A stretch of DNA of 64,000 nucleotides, taken from assembly GCA_951406725.2 (NCBI GenBank), contig OX597825.1, forward strand, positions 31,868,001 through 31,932,000. The letters run 5' to 3'. This document shows, in pieces, positions 14,763 through 48,794 of the stretch (the stretch's first letter is position 1; every line of letters starts with the position of its first letter). A program made the position numbers and the translations under genes. Below the pieces are notes generated by a model, which was not told where the DNA came from, searched no databases, and worked only from the letters and a program-made list of their open reading frames with translations. This stretch comes from Octopus vulgaris (Eukaryota).

Positions 14763-17559
14763 ATCCATCACATAAGACACCATCGATCTAAGAATTAGAT
14801 TATACTTTCTTATGCTGTAAGAATTAGTAATTAGTCATTTGATTTTATTGCAGGATATTTGAATCGATTATATTTTCAATCTGTTGTCTATAGCTTAAAA
14901 TTCTATTTAAAGAAAATTAGCATTTCAAAGAGTATGAGAGAACTTTGAAGCCACCCATTTTCTTAAAATTTAGTGGTAGTCTAGTGGTAATTGATCTTCT
15001 GATATACCATTAAATTATTGATAATTGATAAATGATATTTTTATCAGGAAGCTGGTTTTTATATTTCACATGGGTTAACTTGGAATGTTATTGGGATTAA
15101 TACTCTCTATCTAAAAATGTAATATTTGTTTATATGTAAGGGACTTATAGTATTAATGTCTAATTTTCTATGTTGGATTAATGTAAAGACAGTGACAGCA
15201 TTTTTTTAATAGGTCTTCATTTTGTACTATATCTTTAGTGAAGAATAATACTTCTCGATCTGACCGTGATACATTATTCTTAATTCTTCTTTGGTTGGAT
15301 CATTTCCAAATCAGTACCTCTTATGTTTTTGGTTTATTTTTTTCACCAAGCTTTCCTTATCTCCATCCATAAACCACAGACTTTGGTAATCATTCACATT
15401 CTCAATTCACTTGTGCTCAAATCTCAACATTTGTTTTTTTTTGCAATGATAATGATTGTAGATCTTTTTCTCAGCTCCCCCACCTCCCAATCATCTCCTA
15501 TTCATACTTCAGTGCCAAACAAGCCTTACACTGCCACTGGTTGGCAGAAAGAAAACTGTTGTTGCTCAGGAAGTGTCACCAACTCCACCCACAACTCTGA
15601 TTATATCCCTGCAATGAACCTGTACTCTTTCTACTTTATTAGTCTGCACATATTCTTATTTTAGCAGTTATATGCTTTGGAAATACTAACTCATTAGGAA
15701 ATTAATTTATATAATTATACATGTGTAGGTGTGGCTGTATTTGTGGTGTTAGTACTGCAGCTGCTGACTGAAACTGAATTACTATGGCAACTGTTGTTGA
15801 TGTTGCTGTTGTTGCAATACTTCCTCCTCCTCCTTCCTTCCTGTATAAGATTAGCTGTATTGGAGGCTTTAACCTAAGTGCAACATATCAACAAAGCACT
15901 CATCAATTATACAACGTCTGTGCTGCCTATGGCTAGAGCAACACCTAACATTTGAAGTGTTGATCAAGTGGTTTGTGTATTTGAGTATGTGTGATGGGTA
16001 AGAAAATGTTAAATACTGCTAGAAGCTTCAGGGATCTGTAAAGTTAGTATTTGCCTAGATCCTTGAATTAAGCAGATGAGAAATGAATCTTTCTTTGGCT
16101 AGGACACTTGCCTACCAGAGGTGCCTTCATCAGCTGTCTCTTCTATGTGATTCATTTAACTGAAGCATATAGTGTGAGCATGTTGTCTAAGTGCTGTGAA
16201 AAAATCATGTCATGCGCTAGGCTATTTTGCATACGCATGCATACATGCACAAGCATATGTTTGTGTGTGCATGCACTTGCAGATGCATGTAGAGGAAGCA
16301 GAGTAAAAGTAGAATGCATTTGTAATACTTTGATGTTGAGGTTTTTAAATTGATATCCTGCAACTCTTCGAGAACATATATTGACAGGCTTTTTATGTTG
16401 AAATGTTGTTAGGCTGCCAACATTTTTTATATTCAGTCAAGGGTTTTTACACTCACTACACTAGTGAACGTTTTGTTGGGATGGGGTGGGGAACAAACCA
16501 TCTCTGGTGGTCTCTGTTGGATATATGACAGAAAATAGCTTTCAAGCAGAGATACATTTAGATGCGTTTGTCTACTGTTTTTCACGAGGTTTTCTGACTT
16601 AAGGATACAGATAAGAATTAGTTGTTGTATAACTGACTGCAGATATTGCATTCTTCTCTCCCTCTCTGCTTTGTTTTGTAGCTATATCAGTTTATCATTT
16701 CAATATTGTCTTGTCTTTTTAAAAAGAAATTAATTTAAAATGAAATTGAAAAGTAATTTAGGAATACCAAGTTTTTTTCCATTAGAAAATGTATTTATGT
16801 ACACACATACACACACACACACACATATATATTAATATATGTTGTTGTTTTTATGTAGTTACATTGTTGTGAGACATGAATTGAAAGATTTACTCAAAGC
16901 ATTTAGAATATTAAATCTAATTTTTGCAAGGAAAAGATTGACAATGATTTCAGAGTGCCATCAGGCACCAGTTTTGTCAGATTGTAAAATTTTTAGCCAT
17001 TTCTGCTGTTTTATATGCTTTAGTTTATTGTGGTTGGGATCTAGCAAATGACACACATAGTGATTACCATTTCTTCTTTACAGAAGGCCATCTCTTGAAT
17101 TAGTAAATTCCATCATGAGACCTCATATGACTAGCAAGTCCAGCTTTGGACAAATAGAGACCCTACCAGCGAGTTAAATTTTCAGGTAGAAAAATGTATG
17201 GCATTAAGTCAAGCCCTGTTTACACCATGCACATTTCAATGTGGAGTGTTCAGATTCTTTACAACCATTGTTGATTGCTTCTTTCCAAACCAATCAAGCT
17301 TCAAGTCTTCAACATCCACACTAAGAGCCTTATGTCATTTTTGACAACATCACTAAAATGTTTCTTCAGTTTATGTTTTGGACGTTTACCATGTTGCAAT
17401 TCCCTCTAAAACAACTGCTCAGGTAACTTGTCATCCTGTATCCTAGAGAGATGCCTAGCCCAATGCATCTGATTGCATATGAGGAGGATCTCAATACTGG
17501 ATGTGTTCACTCACTGAAGAAGAATGCTAGCTGATGTTAGTCTGCCATTTGATGTTTAG

Positions 17560-17780
17560 CCCTTTAGCATTTAAACCGGCCATATCCGGCCAAAAATATT
17601 CTACCTGTTTTATGTTCAAACTAGCCCTATCTGGTCTCTCACACCAACCCTACAATATTGTTTTAAAAATTAACAGCTACCTCATCAAAATCTCATGGCT
17701 ACAAGATGATGAATGATTAGTTCAAAACAATGTGGATGAAGAAGCATTAATTTTGGCAGAATAGTGTGAACACTAAAGGG
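17560..17780. mobile_element. TTAA-targeting (piggyBac-like) MITE, family 1
   Basis: Termini CCCTTTAG...CTAAAGGG flanked by TTAG/TTAA. Homologous copies at 28926, 40162, 48108 and 59217. Confidence 0.8.
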
Positions 17781-17818
17781 TTAATATCTTATCCATGAAA
17801 TTTATATAAAATCTACTT

Positions 17819-17992
17819 AGGCGTAGGAGTGGCTGTGTGGTAAGCAACTGGCTTACGAACCACATGGTTCCGGGTTCAGTCCCATTGCATGGCACCTTGG
17901 GCAAGTGTCTTCTACTATAGCCTCGGGCTGACCAAAGCCTTATGAGTGGATTTGGTAGACGGAAACTGAAAGAAGCCCATCATATATATTTA

Positions 17993-18049
<57 letters not shown>

Positions 18050-18270
18050 GTGTGTGTGTGTGTATTTTTGTGTCTGTGCTTGTCCCTCCAACATTGCTTG
18101 ACAACCGATGGTGGTGTGTTTACGTTCTTGTAACTTAGCGGTTCAGTAAAAGAGACCAATAGAATAAGTACTAGGCTTACAAAAAATAAGTCCTGGGGTC
18201 GATTTGCTCAACCAAAGGTGGTGCTCCAGCATAGCCACAATCAGATGACTGAAACAAGTAAAAGAGTAAA
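17819..18270 (+). mobile_element. tRNA-derived SINE family A, full length
   Basis: A-box-like TGGCTGTGTGG and B-box-like GGTTCAGTCCC, then body GGGCAAGTGTCTTCTACTATAGCCTCGGG, a central TG/TA microsatellite, and tail GGTGCTCCAGCAT...GACTGAAACAAGTAAAAGAG. Near-identical to the copies at 22103, 46511 and 53910. Confidence 0.9.
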
Positions 18271-23179: not shown

Positions 23180-25135
23180 CTTTATTATTTTTGCAAAGGC
23201 AAGGGACGAGAAAGACTTTATAGGGACAGGTTAACCAAAATGTGAGAGTTTACATAGAAATCAAATGAAATATATGTATTAAAATGAAAAAGTCACAGTG
23301 CACTGATATATGAGAAATTCCCATTGAATGAGTCACACATAAGACCAATCAAGGAACCCTTGTGGCCCAGGATTACTCTGACTACTAAGTGCTCTCACTA
23401 AGCTGTATTCTTCAACCTTCAAATGCCTGCTAAGAGTAGGCCCATACATTTGTCTACCAAATTACTGGAGGCAGCCCCTCCTTTTCTTCCTCACCTTTTT
23501 CTAAGGAGAACTTGTAAAACTTAATTAGGGCTTAGCCAAAAAGAAAGTATCAGTCTTTGATCCTCTCAGTTATGTCCATCATACAACCTCTTTTGTCATA
23601 GCCACCAGTCAGGAAAATTATTTGGCTTTCCCACCTGAAGGAGGTAATGATGAATTTGGCCAATAGCCAGATCTACTCTAAATGTGACTATAACTATTCC
23701 AGCTTATACGTCAGCAACTCAGACATTGGACAAGTCTGTGCAAAACATTTATAGTGCGTTTCCCACATTTTGATCAACAATACTTTGTAGCAACACTATC
23801 AGGTAACTCCCATAATTCTCCAGGACAGCTCAGCCCAGCCATTTGGTTCTTGTTAGTGTTTAGTATTTCTAAGAGGACATCATTGCTCTTCATCACTTAT
23901 CCTCTATAGAAAGCTAATGAAGTTTCACTGTTGGCGTTAGAGAGCTGCGAGTCCCTGACAACATCCCAAATGTCATACACCTAGTTTTGGTCTTCGCTTT
24001 AGTCAAGATTGCAAGCCCATCAATGATAGGAGTCGTGGCAAGACAGACTTGACAAGCTGTGATCCCCACATGTTTACTGCCCAGGAATCCCTTAATACTA
24101 TGGCCTCAGTACATGTCTGCACCTCATCACCCTTTCATGCCAATTCCAAACTTAGAGAGTATTGGAAGTAGAAGGACTTGCCAACTTGTTGAATACATCC
24201 ACAAGAAATGAAAGAGCAAACACTCCAATCTAGTCTGACAAAGATGACTGTCCAGGCATTAACATGATGGAGGTAATCTACACATTCATCACCTCTTTCC
24301 AACTATTCCCCCCGGCTCACTTCTGGGCAAGTTTGTTTTTCTTTCTGCTCATAACCTCATCTCAGTTTCTGTCTGGACTGAACTAGACTCTAATCAACTT
24401 AACCATCCCACCAGTCCAGTAACCCATGATACTAGCCTCTTTTGGTGATGAACGGCAAGCTTTCTGACTGCTTTCGATTAATTTTTGTTTCTGTTTCTGC
24501 TTCATATTCTTTTAAAATAATACCTTCACCCTCTACATCCATAGTATCTAACACCATTATAGTGGCACTGCCTGCATATGTTAACATGGCTCTCCTGCAA
24601 TATATTCAATGAGGATGCCCCTCAACGTCTAGTTTCTGCAGCAGTTACTCTAGAGTCAGTATATGCAGATGGTGTGAGAGTAATTTGAAATGATTCCAGT
24701 TGGTGGCCATTCATTTTATCAAGTAAATTCCACTATTCTGAAAACAGGTTCAAAATTGACTGCATTCAGGACAGTCACTATGTTGCATTGATTGACCCTA
24801 TTGTAAGTGACTGATTAATCCAAATAGACCTGAGTTCCACCAAGGACAGCTCTTTTTACTCATATTCTCTATGATGTGTGTCATGAGGTGAAACTTGTGA
24901 GTAGATCTGCTTTGATTTATATTGTACAAGTCTGCACTTTCCCAACCATACTATTGATGTCTTTGCAAGCACCTTGGCTAAAATCTTTAAATAGGCCAGA
25001 AATTGTCACTAGTGTCCCCTTTGATTTGATCATTACTTAGCAGTACTACTTCTACATAACTCAAACTTCAAGAAATGTTCATAGTTTACTGTCAGTTGTG
25101 ATAGATATTTACACATTGTACCTAATAAATTTGGT
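23180..25135 (-). mobile_element. Old L1/Tx1-like LINE, RT and 3' portion
   Basis: Minus-strand decayed motifs KGD..DNFWPI, LKILAKVLAK, YLD*S.TYNRVN, LSHHLHILTLE*LLQKL (like LSPLLY.LALEPLL), TYAGSATIMV (like AYADDVT), EYEAETETKINRKQS (like YE...GAKIN..KS). A-rich end near 23180. Confidence 0.75.
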
Positions 25136-25210
25136 GTGTATATATACATATATGTGTATATGCTGCTACACCAGTCATTGGGTGTGACTCCTTCGTGTAT
25201 CACCTGGTTA

Positions 25211-26705
25211 GTCACCTGTATAGTTAACCTGGTGATACACGAAGGAGTCATACCCAATGACTGGTGTAGCAGCATAATAGTCAACTGCTACAAAGGTAAA
25301 GGTGACACTCTAGGTACAAATAATTACAGAGGTATCAAGCTGTTGGATCAGGTAATGAAGATTGCGGAGAGGGTCATAGCCCAACTGATTAGGGAGAGAG
25401 TCACCTTCGATGTGATGCAGTTTGGTTTCGTGCCAGGGAAAAGCACCACTGATGCCATATTTCTGGTAAGACAGCTGCAGGAGAAATACCTAGCCAAAGA
25501 TAAGCCCCTGTAACTGGCTTTTGTTGACATGGAGAAAGCCTTTGACAGGGTCCCCCGATCCCTTATCTGGTGGTCAATGAGGAAACTAGGGATAGATGAA
25601 TGGTTAGTGAGAGCTGTGCGAGCCATGTACAGGGACGCTGTAAGTAAGGTGAGGGTTGGTAACGAGTACACTGAAGAATTCAGGGTAGAGGTAGGGGGTC
25701 CACCAAGGTTCAGTCCTCAGCCCCCTCCTATTTATCATAGTCCTCCAGGCAATAATGGAGGAATTCAAGACAGGATACCCCTGGGAGCTCCTCTATACTG
25801 ATGACCTTACTCTAATTGCTGAGTCACTATCAGAACTAGAGGTGAAGTTTCAGTTGTGGAAACAAGGTTTAGAATCGAAGGGCCTTAGAGTCAACCTAGC
25901 TAAAACCAAAATCCTAATAAGTAGGAAGGCAGACAAACCACAAATCCCTTCAGGTAGATGGCCCTGCTCGATCTGTAGTAGAGGCGTAGGTAGAAACTCT
26001 ATAAGATGTACCCAGTGTAAGCTATGGACACATAAGAGGTGCAGTAATATCAAATGAAGGCTAACGGGGAAGATAGTTTTTGTATGTGGCAGATGCTCGG
26101 GAGCAATAAGCCCTGACAATGCGCAGAGAACAACTTCTGCTACATTTCAGGGAGAAAAACTAGAAGTAGTTGATAGCTTCTGTTACCTAGGTGACCAAGT
26201 CAGTAGTGGGGGAGGGTGTGCTGAAAGTATAGCTGCTAGAATAAGAATAGTTTGGGCAAAGTTCAGAGAGCTCTTACCTCTGCTGGTGACAAAGGGCCTC
26301 TCGCTCAGAGTAAAAGGTAGACTGTATGACGCATGTGTACGAACAGCTGTGCAACATAGCAGTGAAACATGGGCTGTGACTGCGGAGGACAGGCGTAAGC
26401 TCGCAAAAAACACCACTCGAGCGGGATCATTACCAGCATCGCCTTACTAGCACCCATGCCGGTGGCATGTGTAAAAGATTTAAGCAAGATCGTTGCCAGT
26501 GCCGCCTGACTGGCCCCGTGCTGGTGGCACGTAAAAGCACCCACAACACTCTCGGAGTGGTTGGCGTTAGGAAGGGCATCCAGCTGTAGAAACTCTACCA
26601 AATCAAGATTGAAGCCTGGTGCAGCCATCTGGTTTGCCAGCCCTCAGTTATATGTCCAACCCGTGCTAGCATAGAAAGCGGACGTTAAATGATGATGATG
26701 ATGAT
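25211..26705 (+). mobile_element. RTE-clade LINE, 5'-truncated, pseudogenised RT with PHD-like insertion, internal deletion, 3' UTR and (GAT)n tail
   Basis: RT motifs YRGIKLL, QFGFVPGKSTTDAIFLVRQLQEK, AFVDMEKAFDRVPR, VHQGSVLSPLLF (frameshifted near 25695), LLYTDDL, NLAKTK, FCYLG. Stops at 25511 and 26055. Coding sequence jumps to the 3' UTR near 26410. Ends GGCGTTAGGAAGGGCATCCAGCTGTAGAAAC...GATGATGATG. Confidence 0.93.
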
Positions 26706-34735: not shown

Positions 34736-36361
34736 TTACTAACATGCACTAACAATGCATATGCACAGTTATTGGCAAAATATCAAAATGCAGCTATCTG
34801 TTAGCATATATTAAGTAACATTATCTTCCATTGGATTAAACGAGCATTAGACTTTTTTGTGTGAGTGTTATTATTTGATCCTGTGTTTACCCTTTTGAAG
34901 CAGACTTGACATAAAAGGCATTCCAGCCAAGACCCTCCCATCTATTTTTTAGATTGTAGAGTATGACTTGAGGTGGGAGTTCTTTGGCTGCTATTTCTAG
35001 CATGGAAAATTTCTATTAGAATGACCTTGTAGACTCCTCCTCATTGGCTTCTTTTTTGTTTTAGTTTAAAATATCAGACACCCTCTTTCTATGAACTGAG
35101 TATTTCTTAAGCACCTATTTTTACTTATAAATCATGGCAAATAAAAGTAATGCACCTTACTTGGGGGACTGTAATTCAGTAGCTGTTGGCAAGTCAAGCA
35201 TGAAGTGAATGATGTGTGTATACATAATTGACATGAATCACCCATCTTGATTGTGCGGTATATATTTATTACCTGTAGAGAAATTTATGGAAACATTGTT
35301 GTATAGTAAGGCTTGGTTGATGTCAGGTTTTCTTTTTCCTAGTTTATCAGTATTCAACCAATGCAAACTCACTTACTACATCAAAACCATTGTTCACAAT
35401 GATTAATTACCTACCACCTGTCTCTATTATGTGTAATATATGTTTACATTGGGAAAGCAGAGGCAAATAAGCCGTTGACATGACAACAGCTCCATAAATT
35501 GGAAAATCAATTATGTCGCACACACACATGCCTGTGGGCGTGAACATGCATTTGAGCATGCATATGTATGTGCATATGTGTATCTGAATGAAAGATAGCC
35601 ACAAGTGTTAGCTTTCATTAAAATGCTTCCTAATCAATTTTTCTGAAACTAAAACTTACAGAATGATTTTCAAAATGTTGGCAGAAGGAGGAAAATTGAG
35701 ATGCAAAGAAATTTTTTTTTTGTTTTAAACTTTGTCTTTTCTTTTTCCTTCAGCCTCTTTCTATTTTCTGAGTCTTCAGCGTCGGCTTCTTCATCATTAT
35801 CACCACAATTTATCACCACCTTCGTTCTCATTATTTCATGTGATATTTATCTATTTCTATCTTTTTCATGTTTAAAATCAGTGTCTTCTTACAAAGCAGC
35901 AAGTCAAATTATTGTGGGTTGAAGTAGATTTTTATATGGATCAATACAAGTGTTTGGCTCTGGGAAAATTTTAATTTTTACTTTTGAGGCTGTATCTGAA
36001 TGGATGGATGGATGGAAAGAAAGAATTTTTTTCCTCTTTTCTTTTTTTTTTTTGTCTTTTTTGTCCATTAGTCATCTGTTATTTGTATATAAATTAATAT
36101 TAATTCCAAATCTGCTTACCATACTGTCTTGTGTTAAAGAAACTTGTTTGGCTGCCATAGTAACTGTCTACAGCAGTTTTTCAACAAGGAAAAAAAGCAT
36201 ATGTTAAAATGTTGATGACCTCAACAAATGTAGCTGGACTTGATGTTTTATAAGCAAATATTCTTCTGAGTTCTGATTACGGTATTTGGAATCTCTGTAA
36301 TTATTATAATAAAAGTGATAAAAGTACAGTTTTATATTTAAGGGATGAGGAATTATGTACA

Positions 36362-36769
36362 TTATTTACATTTGATGGATATTTGTCCTCATCTTGTTTG
36401 TTGTTATCACAACATTTTGGCTGATATACTCTCCAACCTTCATCAGGTGTCTTGGGGATATTTCGAAACTGGGTTCTCATTCCTAAGTAAGGATAGAAAA
36501 ATATTCACTCTATAATTACCCACGGGCATATGGCGTAGTGGTTAAGAGCGCAGGCTACTAACCCCAAGATTCCGAGTTTGATTCCAGGCAGTGACCTGAA
36601 TAATAATAAGAAGAATAACAACAATAATAATAACATCGAAAAATACCTTAGGAATGAGAACCCAGTTTCGAAATTTCCCCAAGACACCTGATGGAAGCTG
36701 GAGGGTATATCAGCCGAAACGTATTAACAACAAACAAGATGAAGACAAACATCTGTCTAATGTAAATGA
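36362..36769 (+). mobile_element. Composite non-autonomous element: tRNA-like head between inverted Penelope-like arms
   Basis: Arms 36362-36487 and 36647-36769 are reverse complements. Centre 36524-36597 has A-box TGGCGTAGTGG and B-box GTTTGATTCC followed by (AAT)n. Each arm carries a CTGATGA-stem-GAAAC-like motif. Confidence 0.75.
36683..36726 (+). ncRNA. Degenerate minimal type-I hammerhead ribozyme motif (mirror copy at 36404-36451 on the minus strand)
   Basis: The two copies combine to GACAC-CTGATGA-A-GGCTG(loop)CAGCC-GAA-ACGT-T-GTG: stem I, CUGANGA core, stem II, GAAA, palindromic stem III. Each individual copy has core mutations. Confidence 0.6.
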
Positions 36770-48377: not shown

Positions 48378-48673
48378 ATGGATGAACGTAGAGTTGCCGA
48401 TTATTTTGTGGTAGCTGGACTACCTGAAACACCTTCACCACTGGAAGAATCCACAAATGAAAGCATTATTAAACAAACACATAAACAAGATCCAATCACC
48501 GACATATGTGTCATCAATAAATCCTTAGCTGAAAAAGAACCGAAGGGTTATGTTTGTCTTGAGCGAACGCAAACTGGCTTTCTTGCAGACCTCAACCATG
48601 GTAGCATACGTTGTTCAGAAATGTACATTTGTTACCGAAGAGGCAGGGAGAAGCCACCATTAACAGATATTGG
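48378..48673 (+). CDS. DENND4: DENND4/Crag-family Rab GEF, first coding exon (start of MABP domain)
   Basis: Translation [15 protein letters not shown]...PITDICVI...ADLNHGS...[17 protein letters not shown] matches the recalled N-terminus of DENND4A/B/C and Drosophila Crag ([11 protein letters not shown]; YLCYRRGRDKPPLTDLG). Polypyrimidine tract and TTTTAG acceptor directly precede the ATG. Donor GG|GTAATT with GT at 48674 (phase 2). Confidence 0.95.
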
Positions 48674-48794
48674 GTAATTATTTCTTTTTTATTTTTATTT
48701 ATTTTCACCTGCCCCTCTATCATACTTTTTAACCTTACATCACCCAGCATAAAGCTACCTCCCTCAGCACTATACCTTCTCAGCCATGGATCTC

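Follow-up and report, generated by a model that had tools for sequence, protein, structure and literature searches.

Penelope-like elements (PLEs) of the Penelope/Poseidon type, such as PAc of Anolis, have just one open reading frame (ORF), encoding a reverse transcriptase (RT) with a C-terminal GIY-YIG domain. In the available portions of their descriptions, these elements have terminal repeats (pLTRs) arranged as partial tandems, are 5′ truncated, and display an inverted 5′ copy, a tail of 30-40 nt, two preferred 3′ ends and a hammerhead that overlaps the start of the ORF (PMC11167929, PMC8557442). Truncation, the inverted 5′ copy and the one-sided tail are given as typical of PLEs in general (PMC8557442). 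The pLTR promoters of D. virilis and Chlamys overlap a 5′-UTR intron, and the available text mentions no tRNA head (PMC11167929, PMC8557442). Dual hammerheads 100-700 bp apart on opposite strands have been described in metazoan pLTRs; the words "tRNA", "Pol III" and "octopus" do not occur in the main text of that report (PMC4209133).

Small-RNA-derived sequences are also found in other mobile elements. As far as the available text goes, the nearest described system to the one treated here is Sm-alpha of Schistosoma, which, as with Sj-alpha, has a tRNA-related Pol III promoter followed by a hammerhead and is non-coding, tandemly arranged and released by cleavage (PMC6765202, PMC2770079). A tRNA head joined to the end of a retrotransposon is found in tRNA-headed SINEs with LINE-derived tails (PMC5786205, PMC4494074) and in the octopus CORE-SINEs OR1 and OR2 (PMC4824008, PMC4758252). 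In Cassandra, Helenus and Ajax, described as non-autonomous LTR elements in the accessible part of the source, a small-RNA-derived sequence is located in the terminal repeat (PMC10886601).

The octopus family presented here shares with PAc and other PLEs the features listed above for the Penelope/Poseidon type, and its hammerhead resembles those of metazoan pLTRs in the core, the extra unpaired base before stem II, the short stem I and the palindromic stem III. It differs in that a tRNA-derived head with A and B boxes, together with an (AAT)n linker, stands at the start of the pLTR, most copies begin at this head, and the sense strand has no T4 run. Unlike the Schistosoma elements, the octopus unit is the end of a coding element and its ends are not set by cleavage; unlike tRNA SINE/LINE pairs, the partner is a PLE that carries the same head itself; and unlike Cassandra and its relatives, the family is an autonomous PLE. 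The head runs directly into (AAT)n and the pLTR with no space for a CORE body, which sets it apart from OR1/OR2 by their available descriptions rather than by their sequences. A full-text literature search, which covered few subscription journals and did not extend to Repbase and Dfam, found no PLE with a tRNA-derived pLTR and no PLE-dependent tRNA SINE. For O. vulgaris, 190 Penelope-like families and many unclassified SINE families are listed without sequences in the accessible text of PMC13282606, and the family may therefore already be in that library under either label.

The window, a stretch of 64,000 nt of the Octopus vulgaris genome, contains one such insertion (Table 1). It is probably a decayed Penelope/Poseidon pLTR whose built-in tRNA-derived head likely acts, judging from the sequence, as a Pol III promoter. 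By alignment to the family, the feature is a decayed insertion consisting of one truncated and one inverted copy of the end repeat. A sequence-only reading of the window had described two inverted arms enclosing a tRNA-like unit. The arms are real: 36364-36487 and 36647-36767 match over 124 nt at 86% identity (E 4e-37 in the window self-comparison) and are the only matches of the element within the 64 kb, and the inverted duplication is Penelope anatomy. The left arm extends 35 nt further out than had been described, to 36327, which takes in the Penelope tail. As RNA, 36327-36767 has a predicted folding energy of -196 kcal/mol (z -16.7), and none of 100 shuffles folds equally well.

Table 1. 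Parts of the window insertion; in the family numbering, +1 denotes window position 36524, where the tRNA-like head begins
Feature	Position	Strand	Basis
Inverted, 5′-truncated second pLTR copy (+121 to tail end), with the Penelope tail of 30-40 nt at 36327-36363	36327..36487	-	alignment to family majority; tail in other copies
Minimal type-I hammerhead of inverted copy; intact CUGAUGA, G12-to-A change in GAAAC, predicted dead	36406..36451	-	
Remnant of last ORF codons (about -61 to -44) and pre-head spacer	36484..36523	+	alignment; the corresponding stretch of other copies translates as ORF
tRNA-derived head, best match host tRNA-Arg; cloverleaf stems mostly lost	36524..36599	+	
A box of head	36531-36541	+	
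B box of head, one C-to-T change here	36574-36585	+	
(AAT/AAC)n linker, length differs among copies	36600..36633	+	
ATG (+128), a candidate start codon that shares the RT reading frame in tandem copies	36654..36656	+	
Minimal type-I hammerhead of forward copy; CUGAUGA changed to CUGAUGG, 3 nt missing from 3′ strand of stem I, predicted dead	36683..36726	+	
Post-hammerhead part of pLTR, stops at first AATGTAAAT repeat, the more proximal of two common 3′ ends	36727..36767	+	alignment to family majority; 3′-end mapping

The forward copy begins at about -61, inside the final codons of the ORF, and ends at 36767; its stop codon was removed by a 21-nt deletion. The 36 nt in front of the head are a remnant of the Penelope ORF end and not a neutral spacer. 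That the spacer is a fossil fold-back of the head was also considered and is not significant (p 0.20). The forward and inverted copies join at a microhomology of 4-5 nt, and a G-to-T variant common to both arms fits copying from one template. Both hammerhead cores are mutated, as had been claimed, and so is the B box. As an insertion, the window copy is unremarkable and dead; what is of interest is the promoter arrangement of the family.

Elsewhere in the window, the plus strand at 48379-48674 displays a coding exon whose ATG directly follows a splice acceptor, with a weak MVB12/MABP match (E 2e-4); the exon presumably resembles a DENND4-type N-terminus. An upstream non-coding exon must exist, and the element may therefore lie in intron 1. 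Broken LINE RT fragments (RVT_1) are found at 25085-26450 (+), a region that also contains a palindrome of 118 nt at 25159-25276. Short repeats of at least three further families occur in several copies each (2655-2845, 17821-18270 and 17554-17784, and copies of these), none of which matches the tRNA head.

The genome (G000; 2.8 Gb, 227 contigs) was searched with head and arm together, which yielded 4,341 candidates; 40 were scored and 30 loci were fetched. Head and arm recur as a unit genome-wide. In many of the 30 loci, the sequence 5′ of the head translates as the end of an RT-endonuclease ORF. This ORF has an RVT_1 match (E 2.4e-10) and a YVDD motif, and the majority sequence built from 42 long copies has an uninterrupted frame of 785 codons. 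No direct Pfam GIY-YIG match was found in the family ORF; its C-terminal region aligns with the PF01541 (GIY-YIG) stretch of the homolog P0069, at 40% identity overall. The Neptune-type Cys linker is absent from the family ORF and present in the genome's Neptune-type family.

The link between head and ORF is seen from both sides. In 12 of 15 loci picked by protein alone (10 complete, 2 internally deleted), the head is located 34 nt past the stop codon; the remaining three end before the stop codon. Copies that have the 5′ part of the ORF display a head-to-tail unit in front of it, with the tail continuing into the ORF in frame. Translated in frame across the hammerhead, these tandem junctions show 48% identity over 96 aa to the N-terminus of the homolog P0003, and the first in-frame ATG is at +128. 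By this translation, the hammerhead sits in frame within the N-terminus of the next unit. The order is therefore ORF stop, 34 nt, tRNA head, (AAT)n, ATG, hammerhead, tail and next ORF. It follows from the ORF linkage and the in-frame junctions that the head-to-tail unit is the pLTR of a Penelope/Poseidon-type element. The family is, by its sequence features, an EN+ PLE of the Penelope/Poseidon type, a clade assignment made from domain layout and unnamed homologs. A pLTR in partial tandems, an inverted 5′ copy and a 30-40 nt tail are all found in the family. One copy (L165) has the ORF end, the pLTR and the next ORF in one piece, which indicates that read-through RNA also served as a template.

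The earlier supposition that Penelope machinery is at work is thus borne out by the ORF-linked copies and tandem junctions, and the arm does match the terminus of an autonomous Penelope, being the pLTR of an RT/GIY-YIG element. The same reading had confined the head to a non-autonomous element, which does not hold: the head sits in the autonomous element's pLTR. A head-less ancestor was not found in a genome search with the 68%-identical homolog P0001, which gave no nearer sister family among 75 scored candidates.

Several observations were made alongside. The Pfam GIY-YIG search of the genome, set aside as a route to the family, yielded Neptune-type families that were then used as controls. 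The young Neptune-type PLEs at L188-L195 (e.g. G000:C16:20835500-20840500) form one family, whose 781-aa ORFs are intact. At their 3′ end, where the tRNA-headed family has its head, there are repeated GATTGG and TGACGTC words, which we take to resemble CCAAT and CRE boxes. Two copies of the tRNA-headed family, L067 and L068 (G000:C1, 8.94 and 9.05 Mb), have private changes and the downstream flank in common and are likely a segmental duplication. Several truncated copies (L073, L083, L087, L088, L091, L102, L106, L111, L142 and L150) are located directly 3′ of (AAT)n tails belonging to other families, a position that points to AAT microsatellites as sites of insertion or of template switching. 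At least half of the sampled words of L060:1330-1640 are present in 20 public sequencing runs from 10 studies under five organism labels, and the family is therefore likely common to related species; no RNA run is among the listed runs that contain these words.

The tRNA-like unit with A and B boxes followed by (AAT)n is present from 36524 as the sequence-only reading described it. In the family head the A box is at +8 and the B box at +51, and both match the consensus. Among host tRNA genes from 30 fetched loci, a set without tRNA-Arg(ACG), the best match to the head is tRNA-Arg (49/76 nt, z 7.9). ARAGORN called no tRNA in the window or in 57 loci, and an Rfam search gave no hammerhead in the region or in 20 loci, because the motifs are too degenerate or minimal. 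A separate locus, L205 (G000:C12:25267077-25270148), is a tRNA-Cys gene cluster with variant anticodons, one of which was read as ACT.

Copy number changes sharply at the head. Exact 20-mers from the middle of the head (+31), the spacer (-38 to -19) and the ORF (-121 to -102) occur 4,372, 1,013 and 742 times in the genome, with controls at 0. Calibrated on 136, 46 and 38 segments, respectively, these counts correspond to about 12,100, 2,100 and 1,900 copies, with about 15,500 for the arm, totals that are rough since the calibration loci are biased to low divergence. The number drops about 6-fold across the head, and head-start copies exceed ORF-linked copies by about 5 to 1. Of 95 segments extending into the 3′ half of the head, 37 end at +5 to +55, 37 at -8 to +4 and nine at -20 to -9 (some of these being alignment overrun at fold-backs), and 12 extend past -20, only three of which end within the following 100 nt (Fisher p 0.0005). 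In a second sample of 30 loci chosen by the middle of the head, six of whose insertions are also in the first, 19 end at -8 to +4 and two pass -20. The outer edge of the pile-up, -7/-6, is 13-14 nt upstream of the A box, a distance that agrees with the start of type 2 Pol III transcription. As most short copies start at the tRNA piece, this piece is likely the element's own Pol III start signal. The A and B boxes and the pile-up thus favour the Pol III initiation that had been proposed, as the likely origin of most short copies.

The abundance of short copies might also reflect a true self-propagating SINE, in which short tRNA-headed copies have their own Pol III transcripts and use the Penelope enzyme in trans for copying, the autonomous element having only acquired the same head. 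The 5 to 1 excess of head-start copies fits this, as do the A and B boxes and tail kept in the short copies, and Schistosoma has Pol III plus hammerhead SINE-like elements, as reported in the available text (PMC6765202, PMC2770079). Such a SINE should have a history of its own, and this is where the comparison turns against it. The 55 head-start and 34 ORF-linked segments have an identical majority over 214 columns; the smallest column p is 0.008, non-significant after correction, and divergence is 5.8% in the former and 6.6% in the latter. In this sample the short form shows no independent history, and the separate non-autonomous lineage that had been envisaged is not supported, there being neither a diagnostic change nor an age difference. 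A family arising in a single burst is also compatible with SINE masters that do not differ in sequence. None of the copies selected by protein ends differently on the 3′ side. In addition, the PAc template requires ORF sequence up to +172, according to the part of the report available (PMC11167929), and short copies may be without it. An independent SINE is thus considered unlikely.

Whether a Pol III transcript could span the whole element depends on T4 runs, the candidate terminators. The sense strand of the 2,675-nt majority unit is free of them, against 30 on the opposite strand, and no T4 site is common to more than four of 29 copies. The expected number is 2.65 by codon shuffles (p 0.039) and 5.2 by a composition null (p 0.002), a modest deficit measured on the majority sequence and not on a live copy. 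Runs of A5 are likewise low (7 against 12.4, p 0.016), which makes the deficit less specific, and general homopolymer avoidance may contribute to it. As a control, T4 runs number 8-9 in each of eight copies of the young Neptune-type family, whose length and T content are the same. In related metagenome ORFs (80 loci, of which 36 with an open frame of at least 400 aa were used and 44 dropped), at least one T4 run is found in 35 of 36. None of the 36 has A and B boxes together within 700 nt downstream, six having less than 220 nt of downstream DNA; ARAGORN with a lowered threshold gave only noise on the metagenome loci. With no T4 terminator on the sense strand, a Pol III transcript could span the whole unit.

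A different source of the pile-up would be an inert passenger head, with RT stalling or folding back at a GC-rich hairpin at the head start, on Pol II read-through RNA. The stretch from -21 to +17 is predicted to fold as a hairpin of -17 kcal/mol, which by itself could make RT stall or fold back; at the head start many junctions are of the fold-back kind, there is a minor cluster of 5′ ends at +13 to +17, and a read-through template is demonstrated by L165. On the other hand, about 10 of 19 head-start copies, read by eye, have no fold-back at the local hairpin, the A and B boxes are at consensus though the cloverleaf stems have decayed, and the sense strand is without T4 runs. We regard an inert head as quite improbable.

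The mechanism first proposed for this locus was that of a retrozyme-like element, with hammerhead self-cleavage defining its ends. The family does carry, on sequence and predicted structure, a minimal type-I hammerhead with a palindromic stem III, and the core earlier deduced from two mutated copies is the family state: the intact 36-mer has 1,827 exact matches in the genome and its reversed control none. In the minimum-energy fold predicted for the monomer, the hammerhead core is buried. Animal retrozymes have been reported as Penelope derivatives (bioRxiv 10.64898/2026.07.22.740005); the main text of this preprint does not contain "tRNA" or "promoter". The 3′ ends speak against the mechanism. 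Cleavage is predicted after +197, and none of 94 copies, drawn from the leading 100 entries in the list of exact hammerhead matches on contig C1, ends at or near this site; all 94 continue past it, mostly to the AATGTAAAT repeats or the tail. The claim that self-cleavage sets the 3′ end is thereby contradicted. Family copies are dispersed singles or inverted pairs and not tandem arrays of units bounded by hammerhead cleavage, and hammerhead mutants of Anolis PAc still insert in vitro, as stated in the accessible text (PMC11167929). A retrozyme-like origin is largely refuted and very improbable. The 3′ ends fit internal RT initiation at two sites, which is also the case in PAc. Two long inverted arms that flank a short core would also suit a MITE with long terminal inverted repeats that received a tRNA head in a single insertion; this reading is refuted, as arm lengths and junctions vary in every insertion, the arm is a Penelope pLTR, the head recurs with the arm about 12,000 times and no direct repeat abuts the two ends of the window copy.

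The best reading of these sequences is that a captured Pol III promoter in the pLTR sheds SINE-like copies and may drive the whole element. Pol III would start near the G at -6. The RT/GIY-YIG protein would nick AT-rich DNA, and RT would begin internally at the repeats or tail, as in the anole PAc. Starting at the tail nearest the RNA 5′ end, RT would run off at the head and produce a 290-nt SINE-like copy; in many cases it would then fold back or jump to another template and so give the inverted partner. Starting at a downstream tail, it would produce ORF-containing copies such as the window copy. The hammerhead would need a dimer or help from protein and would not define insertion ends. Since read-through templates exist (L165 and the window copy), the protein may come from Pol II read-through.

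A more extended hypothesis, possible yet on the whole doubtful, is that in an autonomous coding Penelope the promoter was replaced by a captured tRNA gene, with end-to-end Pol III transcription, a 2.7-kb sense strand purged of terminators, and SINE-like pLTR copies shed by internal RT initiation. Against the main reading, 37 of the 95 segments already end inside the head, and translation of an uncapped Pol III RNA needs explaining. Three raw RNA runs (one study, organism B), mapped on L165 at 80% likeness, have equal depth in both directions and no concentrated molecule starts or ends, and are uninformative on start site, strand and cleavage. An excess of A>G/T>C in these runs stems from CpG decay of the reference copy L165 rather than from editing.

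Pol III internal promoters are a hallmark of non-coding SINEs. An annotation would wrongly file about 12,000 head-bearing segments under SINE. A coding PLE with a tRNA head, if this is true, raises the question of how the ORF product could be made from or alongside an uncapped RNA whose hammerhead lies 70 nt inside the reading frame. Because the head likely marks the RNA 5′ end, thousands of insertions would record the behaviour of a PLE RT at the end of its template, i.e. run-off, fold-back or jump, and this record bears on the origin of inverted pLTRs. If true, the arrangement would represent a route to the birth of a SINE inside its autonomous partner.
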